Notes: generated by a model from the letters alone, not told the origin. 64,000 nt of DNA from Brevibacterium luteolum (GCF_013004595.1 NZ_JABEMC010000006.1:62001-126000); one strand, 5' to 3'; counted from the first letter of the stretch, positions 54,967 to 62,420 are shown. Translations and numbers: made by a program.

Positions 54967-54997
54967 CCCCACGGAGCTCTCTCCCAGAGAACCGGTG

Positions 54998-55045
54998 TTA
55001 CTGCCTTACGGATGCAGCTGGCTAGATCCGGCCCGCCCGCCAGGC
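54998..55045 (-). pseudogene. Remnant 3' end of a second, diverged permease allele
   Basis: Translates AWRAGRI*PAASVRQ* versus AWRAGRIQPAAALRN* at the end of the intact permease, with mostly synonymous differences. Confidence 0.7.
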
Positions 55046-55076
55046 TACGGTCTTCCCACCCGTCTTCCGGCGATCG

Positions 55077-56315
55077 TCAATTGCGCAGCGCGGCTGCAGG
55101 CTGAATGCGTCCGGCCCGCCACGCGGGGATGAACCCGGCCAGCGCAGACACCACAATCGCGGCCATGGGAACCACGATGATGTGCAGCGGAGACACTACG
55201 GGAACCCAGCCCTGCACCAGGCTGACGAGCAGCACAATGGCGGTGCCCAGGATAGTTCCTATGAGCCCCGCGGCTACCCCGAGGAGCGCAGACTCGAAGA
55301 GAATCTGTTTCAGCAGGTCGCGCGGCCGTCCCCCGATCGCGCGGCGCAGCCCGAGCTCACCCGTCCGCGCTGAAACTCCGATGGTGCCGGTGATGGCAAT
55401 GGATGCTGCACCGATTACAGAGGCGAGTGCCGCTACACCGATGCCCAGATTGACGAGGAGTGAATCCACCGAGCGTCGGTTGGCTTCGGTCTCACTCGGA
55501 GGGGTGACGCGAAGCGCATCCGGTGTGGTGGGGAAGACTGCTGTGGGCATCGCCTCGGCAACATTGGCCGCTGCGCCCGGAGCGACAGTCACCAGCATCG
55601 AGGCTCCATCCTGCGGTGGCCCGAAGTGCTTGAGCGCGGTCTCTGCTGGTACGATCACTGCCCCGCCCAGCTGCGGCAGCCGCCCGGAGCCGTGGACGAC
55701 CCCGGCGATGAGCAACGGTTTCCCACTGACGAAAATGTAGCGACTCTCGTTGCTGAGCGTCTCTTCTGAGATTCCGAGGGTCTGAGCTGCGCTTGCGCCA
55801 AGATAGGCGATATCAGCTGATCCGAGTTCGGTTCGAAACTCTGTCCCATGTACGTTCACCTCAGCCGCTTCGAACAGGCCCGGGCCTGCCACCATCACCG
55901 GTGGCGCTGTGGGTGCTGCCGAGTCGGGCAGAATCGACGTGCTGACAAGCAGAGACTGCCCGTAGCTATCAGAGAACACGCCCGCATGACGCACCCCGGA
56001 CAGAGCGCGCACCCGCTCGGCAGACTGCGCTGGGAACGTCGTTCCCTGCACTGGCAGTATTCCTTCGTCAGCGGCGCCCACCGGTTGTGGCGCATCAGTG
56101 TCGACCGGACTGACATGTGCGATTACTTCGGTCGCTTTGCGCACATCGAAATCGTCTGCAACTTGAAAGCGCACTGTGGACACGAGGCTCAGCACAGAGA
56201 TGACTGCAGTGACTGAGATGAGCAGTCCAACACTGCCGAGCAGAGACCGCACGGGCGTCGACATCACGGTCTTCCATGCCTCGCCCAGCAGGAGTCGGTC
56301 AATGCGCCGGTTCAC
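55077..56315 (-). CDS. MacB/FtsX-family ABC permease
   Basis: RSLL..G TM1, large extracytoplasmic domain, RTGELGLRRAIG, LFESALL, PAWRAGRIQP; start 56315 (GTG) or 56330. Confidence 0.85.
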   Translation of the reverse strand: MNRRIDRLLLGEAWKTVMSTPVRSLLGSVGLLISVTAVISVLSLVSTVRFQVADDFDVRKATEVIAHVSPVDTDAPQPVGAADEGILPVQGTTFPAQSAERVRALSGVRHAGVFSDSYGQSLLVSTSILPDSAAPTAPPVMVAGPGLFEAAEVNVHGTEFRTELGSADIAYLGASAAQTLGISEETLSNESRYIFVSGKPLLIAGVVHGSGRLPQLGGAVIVPAETALKHFGPPQDGASMLVTVAPGAAANVAEAMPTAVFPTTPDALRVTPPSETEANRRSVDSLLVNLGIGVAALASVIGAASIAITGTIGVSARTGELGLRRAIGGRPRDLLKQILFESALLGVAAGLIGTILGTAIVLLVSLVQGWVPVVSPLHIIVVPMAAIVVSALAGFIPAWRAGRIQPAAALRN

Positions 56316-57042
56316 AGCGCACGGTCCCATCGAAGACGACGATCGCCCTGTCCATTTGTGCGGCTACATCCTCGTCGTGTGTCACGATCACCTGAGCGCC
56401 TCCGTCCCGGTGGAGAGCCGCAAGGAGCTCAAGCACGCGGGCCGAATTACGGGAGTCCAGGTTTCCCGTCGGCTCATCCGCCATAAGCACCGAGGGTGAG
56501 TGCACAACCGCTCGGGCAATCGCCGCGCGCTGACGCTCGCCGCCGGACAGCAAACGGGCTGGCGTGTGCATCCGATGTGTGAGACCGACACTTTCAAGTG
56601 CCTGAGCTGCACGGTCGTTCCACTCGCGCTGCGGGACCTCGGTGAAGAACAGCCCGAGCTTGACGTTTTCCAGCACGCTGCGCCGATCGAGCAGATGAAA
56701 GGCTTGGAAGATGAACCCGAACGTGGAACTTCGCAGCTGCGCGCGCGTCTTTTCAGACGCGGATGCGGTCGGTTGACCGTCAACCCAGTACTCACCTGCA
56801 GACGGCACTTCGAGCAGGCCCAGGACATTGAGCAGACTCGATTTTCCTGCGCCCGAGGGTCCGATCAGCGCGATCCGTTCGCCGTAGCCTACGGTGAGAT
56901 CGATGTCGGTGAGGGCATGCACCGGTGTGGCACCGTCATATGTCAAGGTGATGCTTTCCGCCCGAAGCAAGGCTGCCGCCTGATCTGCTGCTGTGCGGCT
57001 GTCACTCGAAAGACGACCGAAAACGATGTCATTGAAGGACAA
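56299..57042 (-). CDS. LolD/MacB-type ABC ATP-binding protein
   Basis: GPSGAGKS, GFIFQAFHL, LSGGERQR, ADEPTGNLD, VTHD; TTG start after AAGGAG. Confidence 0.88.
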   Translation of the reverse strand: MSFNDIVFGRLSSDSRTAADQAAALLRAESITLTYDGATPVHALTDIDLTVGYGERIALIGPSGAGKSSLLNVLGLLEVPSAGEYWVDGQPTASASEKTRAQLRSSTFGFIFQAFHLLDRRSVLENVKLGLFFTEVPQREWNDRAAQALESVGLTHRMHTPARLLSGGERQRAAIARAVVHSPSVLMADEPTGNLDSRNSARVLELLAALHRDGGAQVIVTHDEDVAAQMDRAIVVFDGTVRCEPAH

Positions 57043-58240
57043 TGGTGTCTCCTTCGACCACGCCACCGCCGGTGATCTCAGTCCACCCGCCAATTGTCTG
57101 ACCGACTTCGATGTCCTTGCGTGTCGGCCCGTCCTCGGTCTGAACGGTCACGTATGAGCTTCCGTCAGGGTCTGAGCGCACGGCGGTGACCGGGACAGCC
57201 AGTACATCTCCTCTGGACGCTTCGATCTCGACTGCGATGGTCAGCGCTGTGTCTGGCGGCAGCTCATCGCTGTCCGCCGGATCGATGATGATGCGTTTGG
57301 AGCCCTCCTGTTTCGATTCGTCAATGCTCGCTACAGTGCATGCGGACGTGCCCTCGCGCGAGGACGCAGTGATGGTGCACGCCATACCGGGTCGGATCGC
57401 AGAGGCCGTTGTTTCCGGCACCTCAGAGGCGATCTGCACTCCATCAGCCACCAGCGTGAGAACGGTGGCGTCAGCTTCGAGAACTGCCCCAACTCGGGCA
57501 TCGACGCTGCCGACAGTAGCTGGCAGATCCGAGATGAAGGCGAAGACGCCTTCGGGAACCCGAACGGTTTTCGTGTCACCTTGAGGCGCCGTTGCAGTTG
57601 ATTTCTGTCCGGCGTCCGCGTCGTCAATTTCGCTGTCTGCATCGCTAGCTGAGTCTTCATCGCTGTAAAGAATGGACGAGTCGAGTTGACGATTCGCGAA
57701 GAGCTTCACAACTGCACGCGCCGTCGAGCTGCCGAAGACACCGTCCGAGTCGGTGACTGAAAAGCCGAGTTGCTTCAGAGCTGACTGCAACTGACCGACG
57801 TCAACACCTTTGTCGCCTTCACCGACAGATCGGTACATAGGGAACTTGCCCGGAACGGTGACGATGGGGAAGCCGCTGACCTCCGCCACGACCGTTCCAG
57901 CAGAAACCGTGTCTCCGGGTACGACCGAAGTTCCGGTGACGACCAGCTTGCCGTCGGAGGGCAGCGAAGGCACCGCGACCTGGGTGCCGCCGGTCGCTTC
58001 TACGGTTCCCGACAGGGTCGCTTCGACAGCTAGCCTCCGCTGCTCCACTGCCGCCGTGACAACAGGTTTGGGCGGTGGTTGAGCGTCCGCTACGCGTTGC
58101 GCCGGCGACTGCGTCATGCGTAGGAGGATGAAGCCGGCCACGAGCACACCTACGATGACCAAGATGACGCTTCCAGTCAGCAGCACACGATGCCGACTGC
58201 CAGGTTCGTTATTCGAACCGCGGTCACGAAACAGACCCAC
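57029..58240 (-). CDS. Membrane-fusion/adaptor-like protein with peptidoglycan-binding domain
   Basis: N-terminal TM anchor; PG-binding-1-like GDKGVDVGQLQSALKQLGF..DGVFGSSTARAV; C-terminal VLAVPVTAV...EGDTIV. Confidence 0.75.
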   Translation of the reverse strand: MGLFRDRGSNNEPGSRHRVLLTGSVILVIVGVLVAGFILLRMTQSPAQRVADAQPPPKPVVTAAVEQRRLAVEATLSGTVEATGGTQVAVPSLPSDGKLVVTGTSVVPGDTVSAGTVVAEVSGFPIVTVPGKFPMYRSVGEGDKGVDVGQLQSALKQLGFSVTDSDGVFGSSTARAVVKLFANRQLDSSILYSDEDSASDADSEIDDADAGQKSTATAPQGDTKTVRVPEGVFAFISDLPATVGSVDARVGAVLEADATVLTLVADGVQIASEVPETTASAIRPGMACTITASSREGTSACTVASIDESKQEGSKRIIIDPADSDELPPDTALTIAVEIEASRGDVLAVPVTAVRSDPDGSSYVTVQTEDGPTRKDIEVGQTIGGWTEITGGGVVEGDTIVLQ

Positions 58241-58249
58241 AGGATCGCC

Positions 58250-59083
58250 TCACTCGACGGCCTTGCTCAAGTGAGCGAGTTCAGCCGCGTGCTGCTGGAC
58301 AAACCTGTCCTTCGGTTCGTCCAGCGCTTCCTGCCACTGCTTCCACAGCGGCTCTGCACACGTCACCATGAGTTTGCCCGCTTCCTTCGAGTTCTCATCC
58401 GTCATCGCATCGAGGCTCGCCGCACCGAGACTGAATTGGCCCTCCCAGCCGTGCGCGGTTTCACCTGCGTCGTTCTTCCCCACGGTGGCGCCGCCAGCGA
58501 TGAGGCAGTCGTTCACCGTTTGCTTCTCGGTGTTGTACCGCGGATCGTCCAGGACTTTGTCGAGCTCGTCACCCCATGCGTACTGCAGGTTCTCAAACTT
58601 CTGGTAGTCCTCGCTCTGAGGGGATGGGATCTCATCAGACCCAGCATCTGCACAATCCCACAGCACGAGATCACTGTCCTCGACCGTGGCATTGGCTTCG
58701 GGGGCGCGCCGCCAATCAAGCCCAACTTCAGTCAGCATCTTCGGCGAGGGCACGCGGAAGTCTGGAATCTGCAGATGACGCGTCGCAGCTTCATCGGCAC
58801 GCGGCCACAGATCCTTGCGTCCGTTCTGCTCTAGGCAACTGCGAATTCCTTCTACCCGCCAGGAGGACAGGCGCTCACCCACCCATAGCGCATCATAGTG
58901 AGAGTCCGTTCCCGGGATCTGCACAATCGCACTTTCCACGCGTGGGTCAACACTCCCGTGGTCACTCGACCCGCTTGATCCATTCCCTGAACACCCACTG
59001 AGCAATACCGCGCAGCCGAGGAGAACACCGGCCATCAACCGCTTCTCCACGACTGCACGAAGCTCAAGACGCGATCTGTTCAT
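58250..59083 (-). CDS. Cys-rich lipoprotein of unknown function
   Basis: Lipobox LSGC, Ser/Gly linker, four further Cys; TAATG coupling to upstream gene. Confidence 0.7.
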   Translation of the reverse strand: MNRSRLELRAVVEKRLMAGVLLGCAVLLSGCSGNGSSGSSDHGSVDPRVESAIVQIPGTDSHYDALWVGERLSSWRVEGIRSCLEQNGRKDLWPRADEAATRHLQIPDFRVPSPKMLTEVGLDWRRAPEANATVEDSDLVLWDCADAGSDEIPSPQSEDYQKFENLQYAWGDELDKVLDDPRYNTEKQTVNDCLIAGGATVGKNDAGETAHGWEGQFSLGAASLDAMTDENSKEAGKLMVTCAEPLWKQWQEALDEPKDRFVQQHAAELAHLSKAVE

Positions 59084-59451
59084 TAATGCAGAACCTTCAC
59101 CGTTGCGCCGTTGGTGGCCCGAATTCGATAGATGGTCCCTGGCTTCAATCCTCCAATGATCACTTTCGTTCCAACCTTGCCGTTCTTCAACTCAAGCCTG
59201 GCGGATGCCGTCTTCCAACTATTCCCTGACTTGTATTCGCCAAAGTAAACCGATTTTGAAACCTTCTTAGCCTTCACTTCAGTAAGATTAACGTCTTTAC
59301 ATTTGGTGCTCGGCTTAACATGTTGGTGTTTGAGCTCTGTCCAGAAGCTGTGACAAGGACCAGCAGCCGCAACTGGCTGGGCCGCTGCGATCCCCCCGCC
59401 AAGTGCGACGGCGAGAACTGCCGCCAAGGAGGCAGCCTTCGCTGACTTCAT
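59083..59451 (-). CDS. Small cationic secreted protein of unknown function
   Basis: Sec-type signal peptide (~29-30 aa), Lys-rich mature part, two Cys; AAGGGG RBS. Confidence 0.75.
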   Translation of the reverse strand: MKSAKAASLAAVLAVALGGGIAAAQPVAAAGPCHSFWTELKHQHVKPSTKCKDVNLTEVKAKKVSKSVYFGEYKSGNSWKTASARLELKNGKVGTKVIIGGLKPGTIYRIRATNGATVKVLH

Positions 59452-59539
59452 TATAAATACCCCTTACTACATGAGACGACACGCCACTCTAGTGCGATGA
59501 CGCTAAGAACATAGTCCCAATACACCCAGTGCTCATGGA

Positions 59540-59557
59540 ATACGTTGTCTGACGTAT
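59540..59557. promoter_or_regulatory. Inverted repeat ATACGT-N6-ACGTAT upstream of the island operon
   Basis: Lies ~25-45 nt upstream of a minus-strand TATGTT -10-like hexamer that has no good -35. Confidence 0.4.
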
Positions 59558-60260
59558 GTTCTCAATTCCGGTTACGGCGGGAAGGGCAGTTGCCGAGGAC
59601 TCGCTGACCCTCCCCTCAACTCATTGAGCAGGATCGAGAATGCTCGACCGCACACACAGCTGTGGCCCGCCAGCGCATAGCTCACCAGGAGCTGTCTGGT
59701 GGGGTGCCGTCGGGCACGCGCCCAGACGATGCCCCCGTTCAACACGATCGAGCGTCCCGGCCCACCAGTGAACGGTTCATCGGGCTAAGTCTGTCTTGAG
59801 TAGACAGCATCCGCCCACCTGCGCCACCTTCGTAGGTAGCCACCGGCTCGGTGCGCTACCCGGTTCTGAACGAGAGTCTCGCCTACCCGTTCCGTTCTGC
59901 CGGCGGATTCAGGGACTGCTACAGAATCGGAACAGACAAGACTTAACGGAAAGCTCACAGTGCCCCAGGGTCTGAAGAACAGCAATCCGTGAGTCGATCA
60001 CAGACGATGCAGAGCGCTGAACCGAGCAACATCTGCGTACGGCGGAGAAAGGAGACGTCCTCGCGATTCTTGACAATCAGGAATTGTTTCAAGACAGAAG
60101 TCTGCACTTGCGCGCCCGCGACTGCACAAGAGAGCGAGACCCTCACTCCCGCACTCAAGCGCACATTCGATTCCGAAGATGACATCCACGATCGAGTCAA
60201 GTGACGAGATCGTCGCGACGAACGCAACCGAAGCCATAGGGAACCGCGTATCATCTCACC

Positions 60261-61574
60261 ATGGACCCAGTGAATCGCAAGAATGGAGGCCCCAGCAACG
60301 CGCGGGTCGCGCTATTGAGGAACCTGTCCGGAGACAGATTCATCGATCCGGCTGTCAGACTCAGTAGCGTCCTCATCGCTGTCACGTTAGTTTCCTATGG
60401 CGACGCGGGGCCGGATCCATTCGCGCTCGCTATCCAAGCCTTGGCTGCAGGCGCGGTCGTTCTATGTAGCTTCAAGCCGCTGCCGGGCATGGCCCTTGCA
60501 GCCTCCGCCCTAGTTCTTGAACTCGCGACAGGTCTCGACATCGGAGTTCATATCGCAGTGTCCGCCTGTATAGCGATTTCGCTTACGTACCTGCGATGGA
60601 AGGTCGCGACGATCGGCTCCGCATTCATTTGTCTGAGTGTCATATGGAAGCTCTTCATGACGTCCATCAGCCTGACAGCACTCGTTCAGGTGGAAGGCTA
60701 CGTTTTGGTGCTCGCGCTGATTCTAGGGGCAAGTGGAGGGCTCGGCCAGCAGCGCCTCGACGCTGCGATGTTCAAAGCCGAGGTTGCGGGTCGTGACGCA
60801 GAGCGAAAGCGCAGCCAGGAACGAACGGGAATCGCAAGAGACGTTCACGACTTGATCTCATTCAACTTGACGCGCGAGACTCTGATCCTGAACTCGATTC
60901 GGCTTGACACTACGGTGATGACAGATGATCACTTGGCTGAGCTACGAATAGCTAACCACGCTACGCAGAGATCTCTTCGTCAGCTCACCAAAACGTTGAC
61001 CGGACCAGCAGCACTAGGAAAGATCGCACAGACAGATGATCTCCAGACCATCTGCGAGGACGTCGAACACACTTTCAACGGATTGGCAACACCGTTGACC
61101 GTCTCATGTCACATACCAGCACGGTTCTGCTCAGTGCACGCTTTCCGGCACCTGGAGTGCATCATCACCGAAGCGGCCTCGAACATCCTTCGGCATCATG
61201 ACAAGAACCGGCGAGACCCCGCCGCGATCGATATCTATTTTGATGAGCAGACAGCAGAACTAGCAATTCGGACGTCGAACCCATGTAACCCGGCGAGCGA
61301 GAAACGCGAGCCACATTCGCTTGTCAGCAGGGTTGCCGAACTTGGCGGCGCTCACTCTATCCACGTGAACTCAACTTTCAGCCTGGAAGCACACATCCCA
61401 GGGGAGCTTCAATCACTCGCTCACTACTGCGGTGAGCATCTTTCCGATATACGCGATTTAACGGATGCGTCATCATCAGACTTAGTGTTCAGATTCCGGC
61501 ATGAAGATTGTGCTTTCGCTGATCCTCGCCGGATCCGCTTCGATCGCTCTGACGGAGACACCGAATCCCACTGA
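60261..61574 (+). CDS. HisKA_3-type membrane sensor histidine kinase (degenerate ATPase boxes)
   Basis: ~5 TM segments; H-box ERTGIARDVHD; N-box EAASNILRH; RVAELGG; G boxes not recognisable. Confidence 0.75.
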   Translation: MDPVNRKNGGPSNARVALLRNLSGDRFIDPAVRLSSVLIAVTLVSYGDAGPDPFALAIQALAAGAVVLCSFKPLPGMALAASALVLELATGLDIGVHIAVSACIAISLTYLRWKVATIGSAFICLSVIWKLFMTSISLTALVQVEGYVLVLALILGASGGLGQQRLDAAMFKAEVAGRDAERKRSQERTGIARDVHDLISFNLTRETLILNSIRLDTTVMTDDHLAELRIANHATQRSLRQLTKTLTGPAALGKIAQTDDLQTICEDVEHTFNGLATPLTVSCHIPARFCSVHAFRHLECIITEAASNILRHHDKNRRDPAAIDIYFDEQTAELAIRTSNPCNPASEKREPHSLVSRVAELGGAHSIHVNSTFSLEAHIPGELQSLAHYCGEHLSDIRDLTDASSSDLVFRFRHEDCAFADPRRIRFDRSDGDTESH

Positions 61575-61691
61575 TGCAATCCCTCCTAGCGCCTCCCACA
61601 CAATTGTTGATTCCCGTAGCCACCCCAAGCCTGACTTTCTATGTGCATTATGGAAGCGGACAAACCCAAAACTGTACAAGGAACGGTGCAC

Positions 61692-62339
61692 ATGACTCGC
61701 GTAGCAATCATCGATGACGACGCGTGGGCAGTCCGTGGCATTGCCTCTGCGCTCGAAGATGCAACGGGGTTTGATGTCGTCGCCGAGGAATACAACGGAA
61801 GCAACGGCGTAAAAGCGGTGCTCGAGCACCACCCAGATGTCGTCCTGATGGACGTGAATATGCCGGGAGGCACCAACGGCATCGCAGCTACTGCCCAGAT
61901 CCGACAGATGTGCCCGACAGCAAGAGTCATCGTTTTGACGACGCTGTCCCCTGGGCCGGGGCTTGCGAGGGCGCTAGAAGCAGGTGCGATCGGGGTGGTG
62001 ACGAAGTCAGACCCACCGGATGTTCTCGTCGCAGCGATCCGTCAGGTGATGGACGATGATGAACCTGGTGCGCTTAAGAACCTCGCCGAAACCATCTTCA
62101 TCAGCGGCGATCCCATGCCAGATTCGCCAGCAGTCCCGCCGCGTCTCACTTCCGCTGAACAGAGCATCCTTGAGTACATCGCTCGGGGCATGAGCTATGC
62201 AGACATTGCCGAAGAGCTCACGATCTCTCCGGCGACGGTACGGACACACGCGCAACGTCTACGTGAGAAGCTCAATGCCCATTCACTGTCACAGCTGGTC
62301 TATCGGGGCCTGCAGATGAGATTCATCAGCGTCTACTGA
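61692..62339 (+). CDS. NarL/LuxR-family response regulator
   Basis: IIDDD, VLMDVNMP, LTT, K conserved; LT..E...IARGMS..DIAEEL.ISPATVRTH...LREKL HTH. Confidence 0.9.
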   Translation: MTRVAIIDDDAWAVRGIASALEDATGFDVVAEEYNGSNGVKAVLEHHPDVVLMDVNMPGGTNGIAATAQIRQMCPTARVIVLTTLSPGPGLARALEAGAIGVVTKSDPPDVLVAAIRQVMDDDEPGALKNLAETIFISGDPMPDSPAVPPRLTSAEQSILEYIARGMSYADIAEELTISPATVRTHAQRLREKLNAHSLSQLVYRGLQMRFISVY

Positions 62340-62388
62340 CCTGGCTATATCTCTTGCCTCTGTCCAGCTACCGGTGCTGTCGAGAGCG

Positions 62389-62420
62389 GTGGCCCAGAGT
62401 CCCCTGGGGCTCTGGGCCAC
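62389..62420. terminator. Hairpin between convergent response regulator and glmM
   Basis: GTGGCCCAGAG-TCCCCTGGGG-CTCTGGGCCAC. Confidence 0.75.

Follow-up and report, generated by a model that had tools for sequence, protein, structure and literature searches.

A 64,000-nt stretch of Brevibacterium luteolum DNA (NZ_JABEMC010000006.1:62001-126000; the whole stretch is referred to as the window, and all coordinates are positions in it) carries an island of five minus-strand genes that stand divergent from a HisKA_3-type sensor kinase and a NarL-type response regulator on the plus strand [Table 1]. From its 5′ end, the five-gene operon encodes a small secreted protein (the cargo), a lipoprotein, and the adaptor, ATP-binding cassette (ABC) ATPase and permease of a MacB-type pump. 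These seven genes had been listed in a first-pass annotation and each is present where it was placed; overlooked was an eighth, a 64-codon gene on the plus strand between kinase and regulator, whose product is a candidate precursor of an auto-inducing pheromone. Taken as a whole, the island may be a quorum-controlled bacteriocin locus with an auto-inducing peptide, a joint reading that we hold tentatively, as possible rather than probable. It is carried, at the level of sequence, by the gene set, by a peptide family with a fixed place, by palindromes and their spacing, by the tie of the cargo to one transporter lineage, and by the swapping and loss of cargo genes.

In the circuit that we propose, the 64-residue precursor would be secreted and trimmed to a disulfide-looped peptide sensed by the five-helix membrane kinase, upon which the regulator would bind two palindromes and raise both the peptide-regulator transcript and the five-gene operon. 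The cargo would be exported by Sec and act as an antibacterial, and the lipoprotein and adaptor-pump would clear it from the space between membrane and wall, protecting the producer and aiding release through the wall. By analogy with MacB, the pump would act outside the membrane and move no cargo across it. We also infer Sec export of both small proteins and the disulfide of the peptide. Control of the five-gene operon by the regulator is very probable; that lipoprotein and pump handle the cargo is probable, that the 64-residue peptide signals is slightly less so, and an antibacterial cargo is narrowly the likelier case.

A peptide gene between kinase and regulator

The 64-residue product has a hydrophobic, signal-like N-terminus, a variable spacer and the C-terminal motif C-x2-W-x3-[DN]-x3-[YF]-x3-C. 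Of 52 related regulator loci, 15 have an open reading frame of this plan at the kinase-regulator junction, eight of them in Brevibacterium and seven in one genus of another family; at one locus the upstream DNA was too short for scoring. The strict motif closes all 15 peptides and a hydrophobic start opens all 14 that are complete; elsewhere in the B. luteolum genome, just three of 35,718 frames end in as much as a loose version of the motif. Conservation is confined to the last 16 residues, which follow a spacer variable in both length and sequence; this core has a mean identity of 44% between loci and is nearly constant among the 15 members of one cluster, and two different cores occur in a single genome (L354 and L355). 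Some of the N-termini have no clear cleavage site. The family matched neither Pfam nor NCBIfam; the Brevibacterium ravenspurgense peptide has an entry labelled hypothetical protein, and the sequence of the window peptide is absent from the protein collection. Peptide-bearing kinases are scattered over the kinase tree, which suggests repeated loss of the peptide gene. For the regulator, the most likely start is position 61692, with an ATG that shares bases with the stop codon of the peptide gene (ATGA). That the 122-residue secreted protein might itself be a signal, as had been suggested, is unlikely, the separate 64-residue peptide being the better candidate. Two further strict-motif hits (in L030 and on C18 of the B. 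luteolum genome) were rejected as mid-frame matches outside any cassette. Short signal-bearing open reading frames with a C-terminal Cys pair and a shorter loop were also seen between other HisKA_3/NarL pairs (L234:2576-2722 and L236:2415-2606), and such peptide cassettes may reach beyond the family studied here.

The kinase-regulator subfamily was found in two genera of the order only. The kinase matches HisKA_3 below the Pfam cut-off (19.8 versus 24 bits), and its H-box His196 and N-box Asn308 are invariant in 20 relatives; the DxG and GxG boxes are absent from it and from all 20, and two other kinases of the same genome keep the Gly-rich lid. In the regulator, the receiver Asp, Thr and Lys are invariant in 10 relatives. 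A class-wide kinase search over 401 genomes returned weak, generic kinases, and the 80 loci that the regulator alignment retrieved from metagenomes have ordinary NarL regulators; none in either set had the peptide motif.

Upstream of the cargo gene lies a 7-4-7 palindrome, the predicted regulator site, which ranks third among 2,965,404 genome positions with a score of 17.8 under a matrix trained on six loci excluding the window and L030. Of 13 cassette promoters, eight contain the palindrome; none of the 38 sequences upstream of cargo genes at other loci does. At 7 of 14 peptide loci, the top-scoring site in the 120 bases before the start codon sits precisely at -52, and five of these sites score at least 13, compared with 0.67% of random 120-nt windows that reach 7 and 0.07% that reach 13. 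A TAnnnT hexamer follows the site by 22 bases in 4 of 8 cargo promoters, the window not among them, a geometry that would place the start codon of the peptide gene at the first transcribed base and leave that transcript leaderless. The site before the peptide of L361 is a different palindrome, and the loci with an ATACGT half-site (the window, L030 and L359) have a common recognition helix, ATVRTH, unlike that of other loci. Elsewhere in the B. luteolum genome, sites at C7:17868 and C16:231256 score above the window palindrome, with no secreted-protein gene seen alongside. The two-component control proposed in the first-pass annotation is thus supported by the common palindrome, but the pair is not a fixed part of such loci, a NarL-type regulator lying near only 5 of the 45 transporter loci in the lineage of the window (grade A, below).

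The two-component cassette also serves other secreted-protein loci. At 9 of the 13 peptide loci with enough flanking DNA, it is accompanied by a gene for a small or medium secreted protein together with a lipoprotein, a small membrane protein or an ABC system. In L356 it faces a Lactococcin_972 gene (E 3e-17, above both the Pfam and the NCBIfam cut-offs) accompanied by its own permease and ATPase; L354 and L368 have a weak Peptidase_C92 match and a DUF6973 match, respectively, with a lipoprotein at each, and L359 a secreted Peptidase_C92-like protein and lipoproteins. Cassette and transporter module are thus separate mobile units that this island brings together; the regulator subfamily of the window occurs at only three of the 45 grade A loci (the window, L030 and L038). 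In L358, L359 and L372, the secreted Peptidase_C92-like gene and the lipoproteins lie between kinase and regulator; the former is intact in L359 and shortened in L358.

Table 1 Features of the island in the window (strand "." where none applies)
Feature	Position	Strand	Basis or remark
MacB/FtsX-type permease	55077..56330	-	Pfam FtsX E 6e-18, MacB_PCD E 2e-10
ABC ATPase, LolD/FtsE/MacB type	56299..57093	-	ABC_tran E 7e-32
Membrane fusion protein (MFP)/HlyD-like membrane-anchored adaptor	57029..58240	-	PG_binding_1 and HlyD_3 above Pfam cut-off
Lipoprotein, 277 residues, acidic	58250..59083	-	Lipobox Cys31; four further Cys
Secreted cargo protein, 122 residues	59083..59451	-	~92-residue mature part, net +13, 2 Cys
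7-4-7 palindrome, predicted regulator site	59540..59557	.	89-106 bases upstream of cargo start
Membrane sensor kinase, HisKA_3 type	60261..61574	+	5 predicted helices
Weaker palindrome copy	61449..61466	.	Inside kinase tail, 52 bases before peptide start, score 7.2
Candidate auto-inducing pheromone precursor, 64 residues	61501..61695	+	Overlaps kinase tail; stop overlaps regulator start
NarL/LuxR-type response regulator	61692..62339	+	Response_reg and GerE above Pfam cut-off
Likely terminator, 15-bp inverted repeat	62389..62420	.	Between regulator and convergent glmM

The transporter module and its cargo slot

The domain identities named earlier for the permease, ATPase, adaptor and regulator were borne out by Pfam matches above cut-off. 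The permease has four predicted membrane helices, one followed by a large outside domain and then three more (hydropathy segments 32-50, 295-313, 349-367 and 376-394). The best NCBIfam models for the ATPase are LolD, FtsE and TIGR03608, every one below its own cut-off, and the true start of this gene is probably slightly inside the open reading frame. In the adaptor, which has one N-terminal helix, PG_binding_1 is inserted, and RND_mfp matches below its cut-off (E 6e-13). The permease topology, its MacB_PCD and FtsX domains and the adjoining ATPase and adaptor are those of a MacB-type (type VII) ABC transporter, and the window transporter belongs to the MacB family. Residues Cys 83, 144, 193 and 242 of the lipoprotein are invariant in nine aligned relatives, save for two late-starting rows at Cys83. 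The lipoprotein has no Pfam family; its model is all-helical and soluble (predicted local distance difference test, pLDDT, 80.5), and a fold search gave a best Z of 4.8 and no Foldseek match, which does not establish a new fold. It is a candidate binder or chaperone of the secreted 122-residue protein.

The search for related loci, seeded with an alignment of eight adaptors, covered 301 genomes at phylum level and 301 at order level and scored no more than six candidates in each; the loci retained were the best 40 and 60 regions of the two rankings, 13 loci of the genus, the window and the second copy in its own genome. The tree comprises the 105 of 120 adaptor hits that have both ATPase and permease; five of them, with less than 1.5 kb of upstream DNA, were not scored for cargo. 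Signal peptides were assigned with a plain hydropathy criterion, and the cargo counts, in which kin loci are not independent, are given with no p value. Grade A, which is not a clade and holds the window (n = 45), had an intact cargo gene in 30 loci, a broken one in three, a doubtful one in two and none in 10, compared with 1 of 33 loci in the nested clade B (support 0.98; long lipoproteins) and 0 of 22 in clade C (support 1.0; short lipoproteins and mostly OmpR regulators). Automatic scoring by a fixed rule put these counts at 25 of 45, 0 of 33 and 1 of 22, respectively, and 23 of 34 grade A loci had intact cargo after removal of the 11 from Brevibacterium, which include all eight seeds. In the lineage of the window, homologous transporter operons thus do usually carry a small secreted gene, as the first-pass annotation had expected. 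Grade A also evolves faster than the other two groups (median terminal branch 0.54 versus 0.14 and 0.23) and lies more often on DNA of low guanine-plus-cytosine (GC) content (17 of 43 loci versus 1 of 33 and 1 of 19). Six of the 15 adaptor hits left out of the tree also have a small secreted gene; secreted genes of ~100 residues with short lipoproteins, their ATPase or permease unmatched, were seen in L085, L088, L092 and L196:14553-14870, all outside the tree. The genome of the window has a second, cargo-less lipoprotein-adaptor-ATPase-permease set, of clade C (C2:2792-8236; L012, L013), in which the lipoprotein is short and an OmpR pair lies alongside.

The 40 cargoes fall into 16 sequence clusters, the largest with 18 members, mostly Inhibitor_I36, and that of the window with four; Inhibitor_I36, PG_binding_1, Crystall_2 and a weak SH3_3 are the named domains. 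The slot is, to judge from these families, swappable among unrelated ones. In L032, L038 and L158 the cargo gene is broken and the lipoprotein and pump are intact, and L035 and L036 keep the machinery with no cargo gene, which the near-identical L034 has. This loss of cargo with retention of the machinery has a parallel in the scb loci of pneumococci, where 27.5% have only the transporter genes scbBC left (PMC11796350). Tandem lipoproteins or repeated cargo-lipoprotein pairs were found in L143-L145, L148, L159 and L162. Other arrangements were seen on two Streptomyces plasmids and among insertion sequence (IS) elements. On the Streptomyces rochei plasmid NZ_CP133099.1 (L385:1398-4289), a 963-residue protein with weak SLT and Golvesin_C matches, possibly a large wall-acting cargo, directly precedes adaptor, ATPase and permease, with no separate lipoprotein annotated; plasmid NZ_CP108702.1 (L384:2778-7642) has a complete module, whose cargo is a weak Inhibitor_I36, with a truncated secreted-gene remnant upstream; and L033:13734-15693, among IS elements near a module copy, encodes a 358-residue secreted protein followed by two small membrane proteins.

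The window cargo belongs to a family of about a dozen members, relatives of which precede the same lipoprotein in L030 and L156 and two lipoproteins in L209. Its model is a seven-strand small jelly-roll beta sandwich (pLDDT 79.8) with generic fold matches only, XepA at Z 7.5 (root-mean-square deviation 5.0, 96 residues aligned), a value within the range that the search tool calls common, and YomS at Z 7.3; Foldseek gave no match at E 0.001, and a crystallin-fold comparison again had generic jelly rolls on top (Z up to 7.5). The protein has no Pfam family in a search of the window proteins against Pfam, and no PF03995 (Inhibitor_I36) or crystallin match, though many other cargoes do; a PDB profile search with its family gave nothing credible, and neither it nor its seven aligned relatives matched PF09683/TIGR01653 (lactococcin 972). 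A fibronectin type III (FN3)-like reading of its GLKPGT motif, based on weak matches to long proteins, was not borne out by the model. The label "cationic" given to it earlier holds for the window cargo itself but not as a trait of the cargoes at large, 12 of 28 being cationic and nine acidic.

Known systems and competing explanations

MacB-type permeases are described as acting outside the membrane with no carriage of substrate across it, MacB homologues as exporting ~10-kDa proteins, and YknXYZ and As-48EFGH as protecting the producer against its own toxins from outside the membrane (PMC5985334). Like Bacillus YknWXYZ and Enterococcus As-48EFGH, in which the adaptor binds peptidoglycan and protection from a self-made toxin takes place outside the membrane (PMC5985334), the window locus combines an adaptor, an ATPase, a four-helix MacB permease and one extra component. 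Unlike in these systems, its extra component is a soluble four-Cys lipoprotein rather than an integral membrane protein, its adaptor has a PG_binding_1 domain of its own, and its operon encodes a folded 90-150-residue secreted protein of changing family. With the loci of Lcn972, where an ABC system to which immunity is ascribed comes after the gene (PMC4055356), and of streptococcin B, it shares a small secreted protein followed by an ABC system; the bacteriocins of these loci are antibacterial, and loci with the transporter that have lost the bacteriocin are common (PMC4055356, PMC11796350). Unlike Lcn972, the window permease does not match TIGR01654 and the ATPase reaches 191 bits against TIGR03608 (cut-off 255), and unlike both, the locus adds an adaptor and a lipoprotein.

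As in Firmicutes inducer systems such as Blp (PMC11796350), a peptide gene, with variable peptide types, stands beside a multi-pass kinase and a regulator. Likewise, an operator, here predicted, precedes both the peptide gene and a bacteriocin-like operon. Pln, Spp and gallocin are Firmicutes three-component inducer systems of this plan as well, and Blp, Pln and Spp employ a double-glycine leader, a peptidase-ABC exporter, an AgrC/ComD-type kinase, a LytTR regulator and direct repeats. The window cassette, in contrast, has a peptide with a signal-like leader (as in the 14 aligned peptides) and a C-terminal Cys pair, a HisKA_3-like kinase without G boxes, a GerE/LuxR (NarL) regulator and a palindrome, and is found in Actinobacteria; no peptidase-ABC exporter was found among the island genes. 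The locus falls outside YknWXYZ, Lcn972 and Blp/Pln alike. In logic it works like these systems: the design is known and the parts are new. No description of this operon type or peptide was found in the literature searched, which did not extend to subscription journals and supplements, so that an earlier mention is possible.

Among the alternatives to a bacteriocin locus, the one that survives best, although we regard it as unlikely, is drawn by analogy with dispersin export by MacB-type pumps: the cargo would be a harmless secreted protein (a coat, a lectin or an enzyme inhibitor) exported through the wall by lipoprotein and MacB-adaptor, with no killing involved. This would suit the named cargo domains, which are binding or inhibitor folds (Inhibitor_I36, PG_binding_1, crystallin and the weak SH3_3), the likeness of the window cargo to carbohydrate-binding jelly rolls, the nine acidic cargoes among 28, and the export of ~10-kDa proteins by MacB homologues (PMC5985334). 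An exporter should, however, decay along with its cargo, yet lipoprotein and pump are intact in L032, L035, L036, L038 and L158; moreover, lipoproteins multiply, and in L356 the client of the regulatory cassette is a recognised bacteriocin family.

Less probable again is that the 64-residue product is an accessory of the kinase, a tethered or secreted feedback modulator, with the kinase sensing envelope damage or the cargo and everything else as in the proposed circuit. The analogy would be with MgrB, an accessory peptide acting on the kinase PhoQ, with which the window peptide shares a small gene under its own regulator, a hydrophobic N-terminus, an outer Cys pair and a Trp, and from which it differs by a long variable spacer, a variable core and the absence of a sequence family match. 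Conservation of only the last 16 residues after a variable spacer, as in processed pro-peptides, argues against a modulator, as do a core that varies between loci (44%) but is nearly constant in one 15-member cluster and the two cores in the genome of L354 and L355. The placing of the peptide gene itself under the palindrome, on the other hand, fits negative feedback equally well, and the 37 of 52 regulator loci that do without the peptide, the N-termini with no clear cleavage site and the kinase without G boxes all agree with an accessory role. A general envelope-detoxifying pump made of lipoprotein, adaptor and MacB, with the secreted gene a merely co-transcribed passenger, would account for the pump without cargo in 54 of 55 scored clade B and C loci, for the OmpR-type regulators beside 15 of 22 clade C loci and for the cargo-less copy on C2, but is improbable, as grade A evolves faster, lies more often on low-GC DNA and has its slot filled by small signal-bearing genes from many unrelated families, which would be unexpected of a passenger.

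Several points weigh against the reading of the island as a quorum-controlled bacteriocin locus. The window cargo has no toxin family and no distinctive fold; the simple picture of a cationic bacteriocin is at odds with the proportion of cationic cargoes (12 of 28), and the charges of cargo and lipoprotein are uncorrelated (Spearman -0.15, p 0.44). In clades B and C, lipoprotein, adaptor and pump are kept without cargo, which indicates a cargo-independent use. On the signalling side, the peptide is absent from 37 of 52 regulator loci, most of them top-ranked Brevibacterium hits (28 loci, L317-L346), and from L038 and the closest module, L030, the latter of which keeps operator and cargo. The peptide cassettes of L364-L366 have no secreted toxin-like neighbour, and L361 is ambiguous. 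Peptide similarity follows that of the cytoplasmic part of the kinase (Mantel 0.34) as closely as that of the sensor part (0.31), so that specific co-variation of peptide and sensor is not separable from shared ancestry, and in a kinase family without G boxes ordinary autophosphorylation is in doubt. Lastly, the -52 site of the window is weak (7.2), and the palindrome pattern, by which the training sites were chosen, came from a visual comparison that included the window. Those of the L317-L346 loci that were viewed adjoin an aminotransferase-like gene with no secreted neighbour, and their kinase is possibly an eavesdropping receptor. In L364-L366, the cassette lies between rpoC and a cell-wall-protein-like gene, presumably of the DUF348/G5 type.

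Should the quorum-controlled reading be right, the island would represent a directly testable and previously undescribed kind of quorum sensing by peptide in Actinobacteria, would assign a role to a frequent but unexplained set (lipoprotein, "peptidoglycan-binding protein" and ABC transporter) and would make the first gene of the operon a marker for new antibacterials. More speculatively, Micrococcales may have a peptide quorum sensing of their own, with a Sec-exported, disulfide-looped 16-residue pheromone, a G-box-less kinase and a NarL regulator, in a cassette that moves between bacteriocin-like loci and has among its clients a widespread actinobacterial lipoprotein-MacAB machine accepting interchangeable small secreted toxins; hundreds of "Inhibitor_I36" and hypothetical secreted genes would then be a hidden bacteriocin class. 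The locus also lends itself to asking what MacAB adaptors move in Gram-positive cells, which have no outer membrane, and it offers a kinase family without the usual ATP-lid glycines.

Genomic setting of the island

The island lies between a peptide importer ATPase on one side and the convergent glmM on the other. Its low GC content, as claimed earlier, was confirmed at 0.56-0.65 per kb versus 0.65-0.71 in the 10 kb on the left and the last kb, and GC at third codon positions is 0.57-0.68 in the island genes and 0.86-0.92 in the flanking ones. The nearest named record is Brevibacterium gallinarum Re57, with a module 99-100% identical, and an adaptor relative of at least 56% identity was found in 2 of 68 other Brevibacterium genomes. 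One of these two, L030, whose lipoprotein record is named B. otitidis, has the module at the same chromosomal site. Between L030 and the window, identity is 95-96% for the flanking importer ATPase and GlmM, compared with 73% for the permease, 76% for the ATPase, 54% for the adaptor, 50% for the lipoprotein, 64% for the cargo, 32% for the kinase and 57% for the regulator. The module thus diverges fast at one site between near-identical flanks, in line with the bacteriocin reading.

The intergenic stretch between cargo and kinase measures 809 bp in the window and ~200 bp in L030. Its extra DNA (59558-60260) had no match in the same genome or in the other loci, and neither a repeat nor an IS element matched the 809-bp stretch; informative repeats and a sigma-70 consensus promoter were likewise not found. 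RNA contigs were available from 4 of 8 listed runs; they cannot give level, start or strand and were not counted as evidence. Contig ends fall at 59496 and 59497 in two runs of one study, a distance of 8-9 bases to the operon start predicted by the palindrome spacing (~59505), and at 59463 in a run of another study. One contig spans 55332-59497 at a depth of 49, and the kinase-regulator pieces are at a depth of 3-5.

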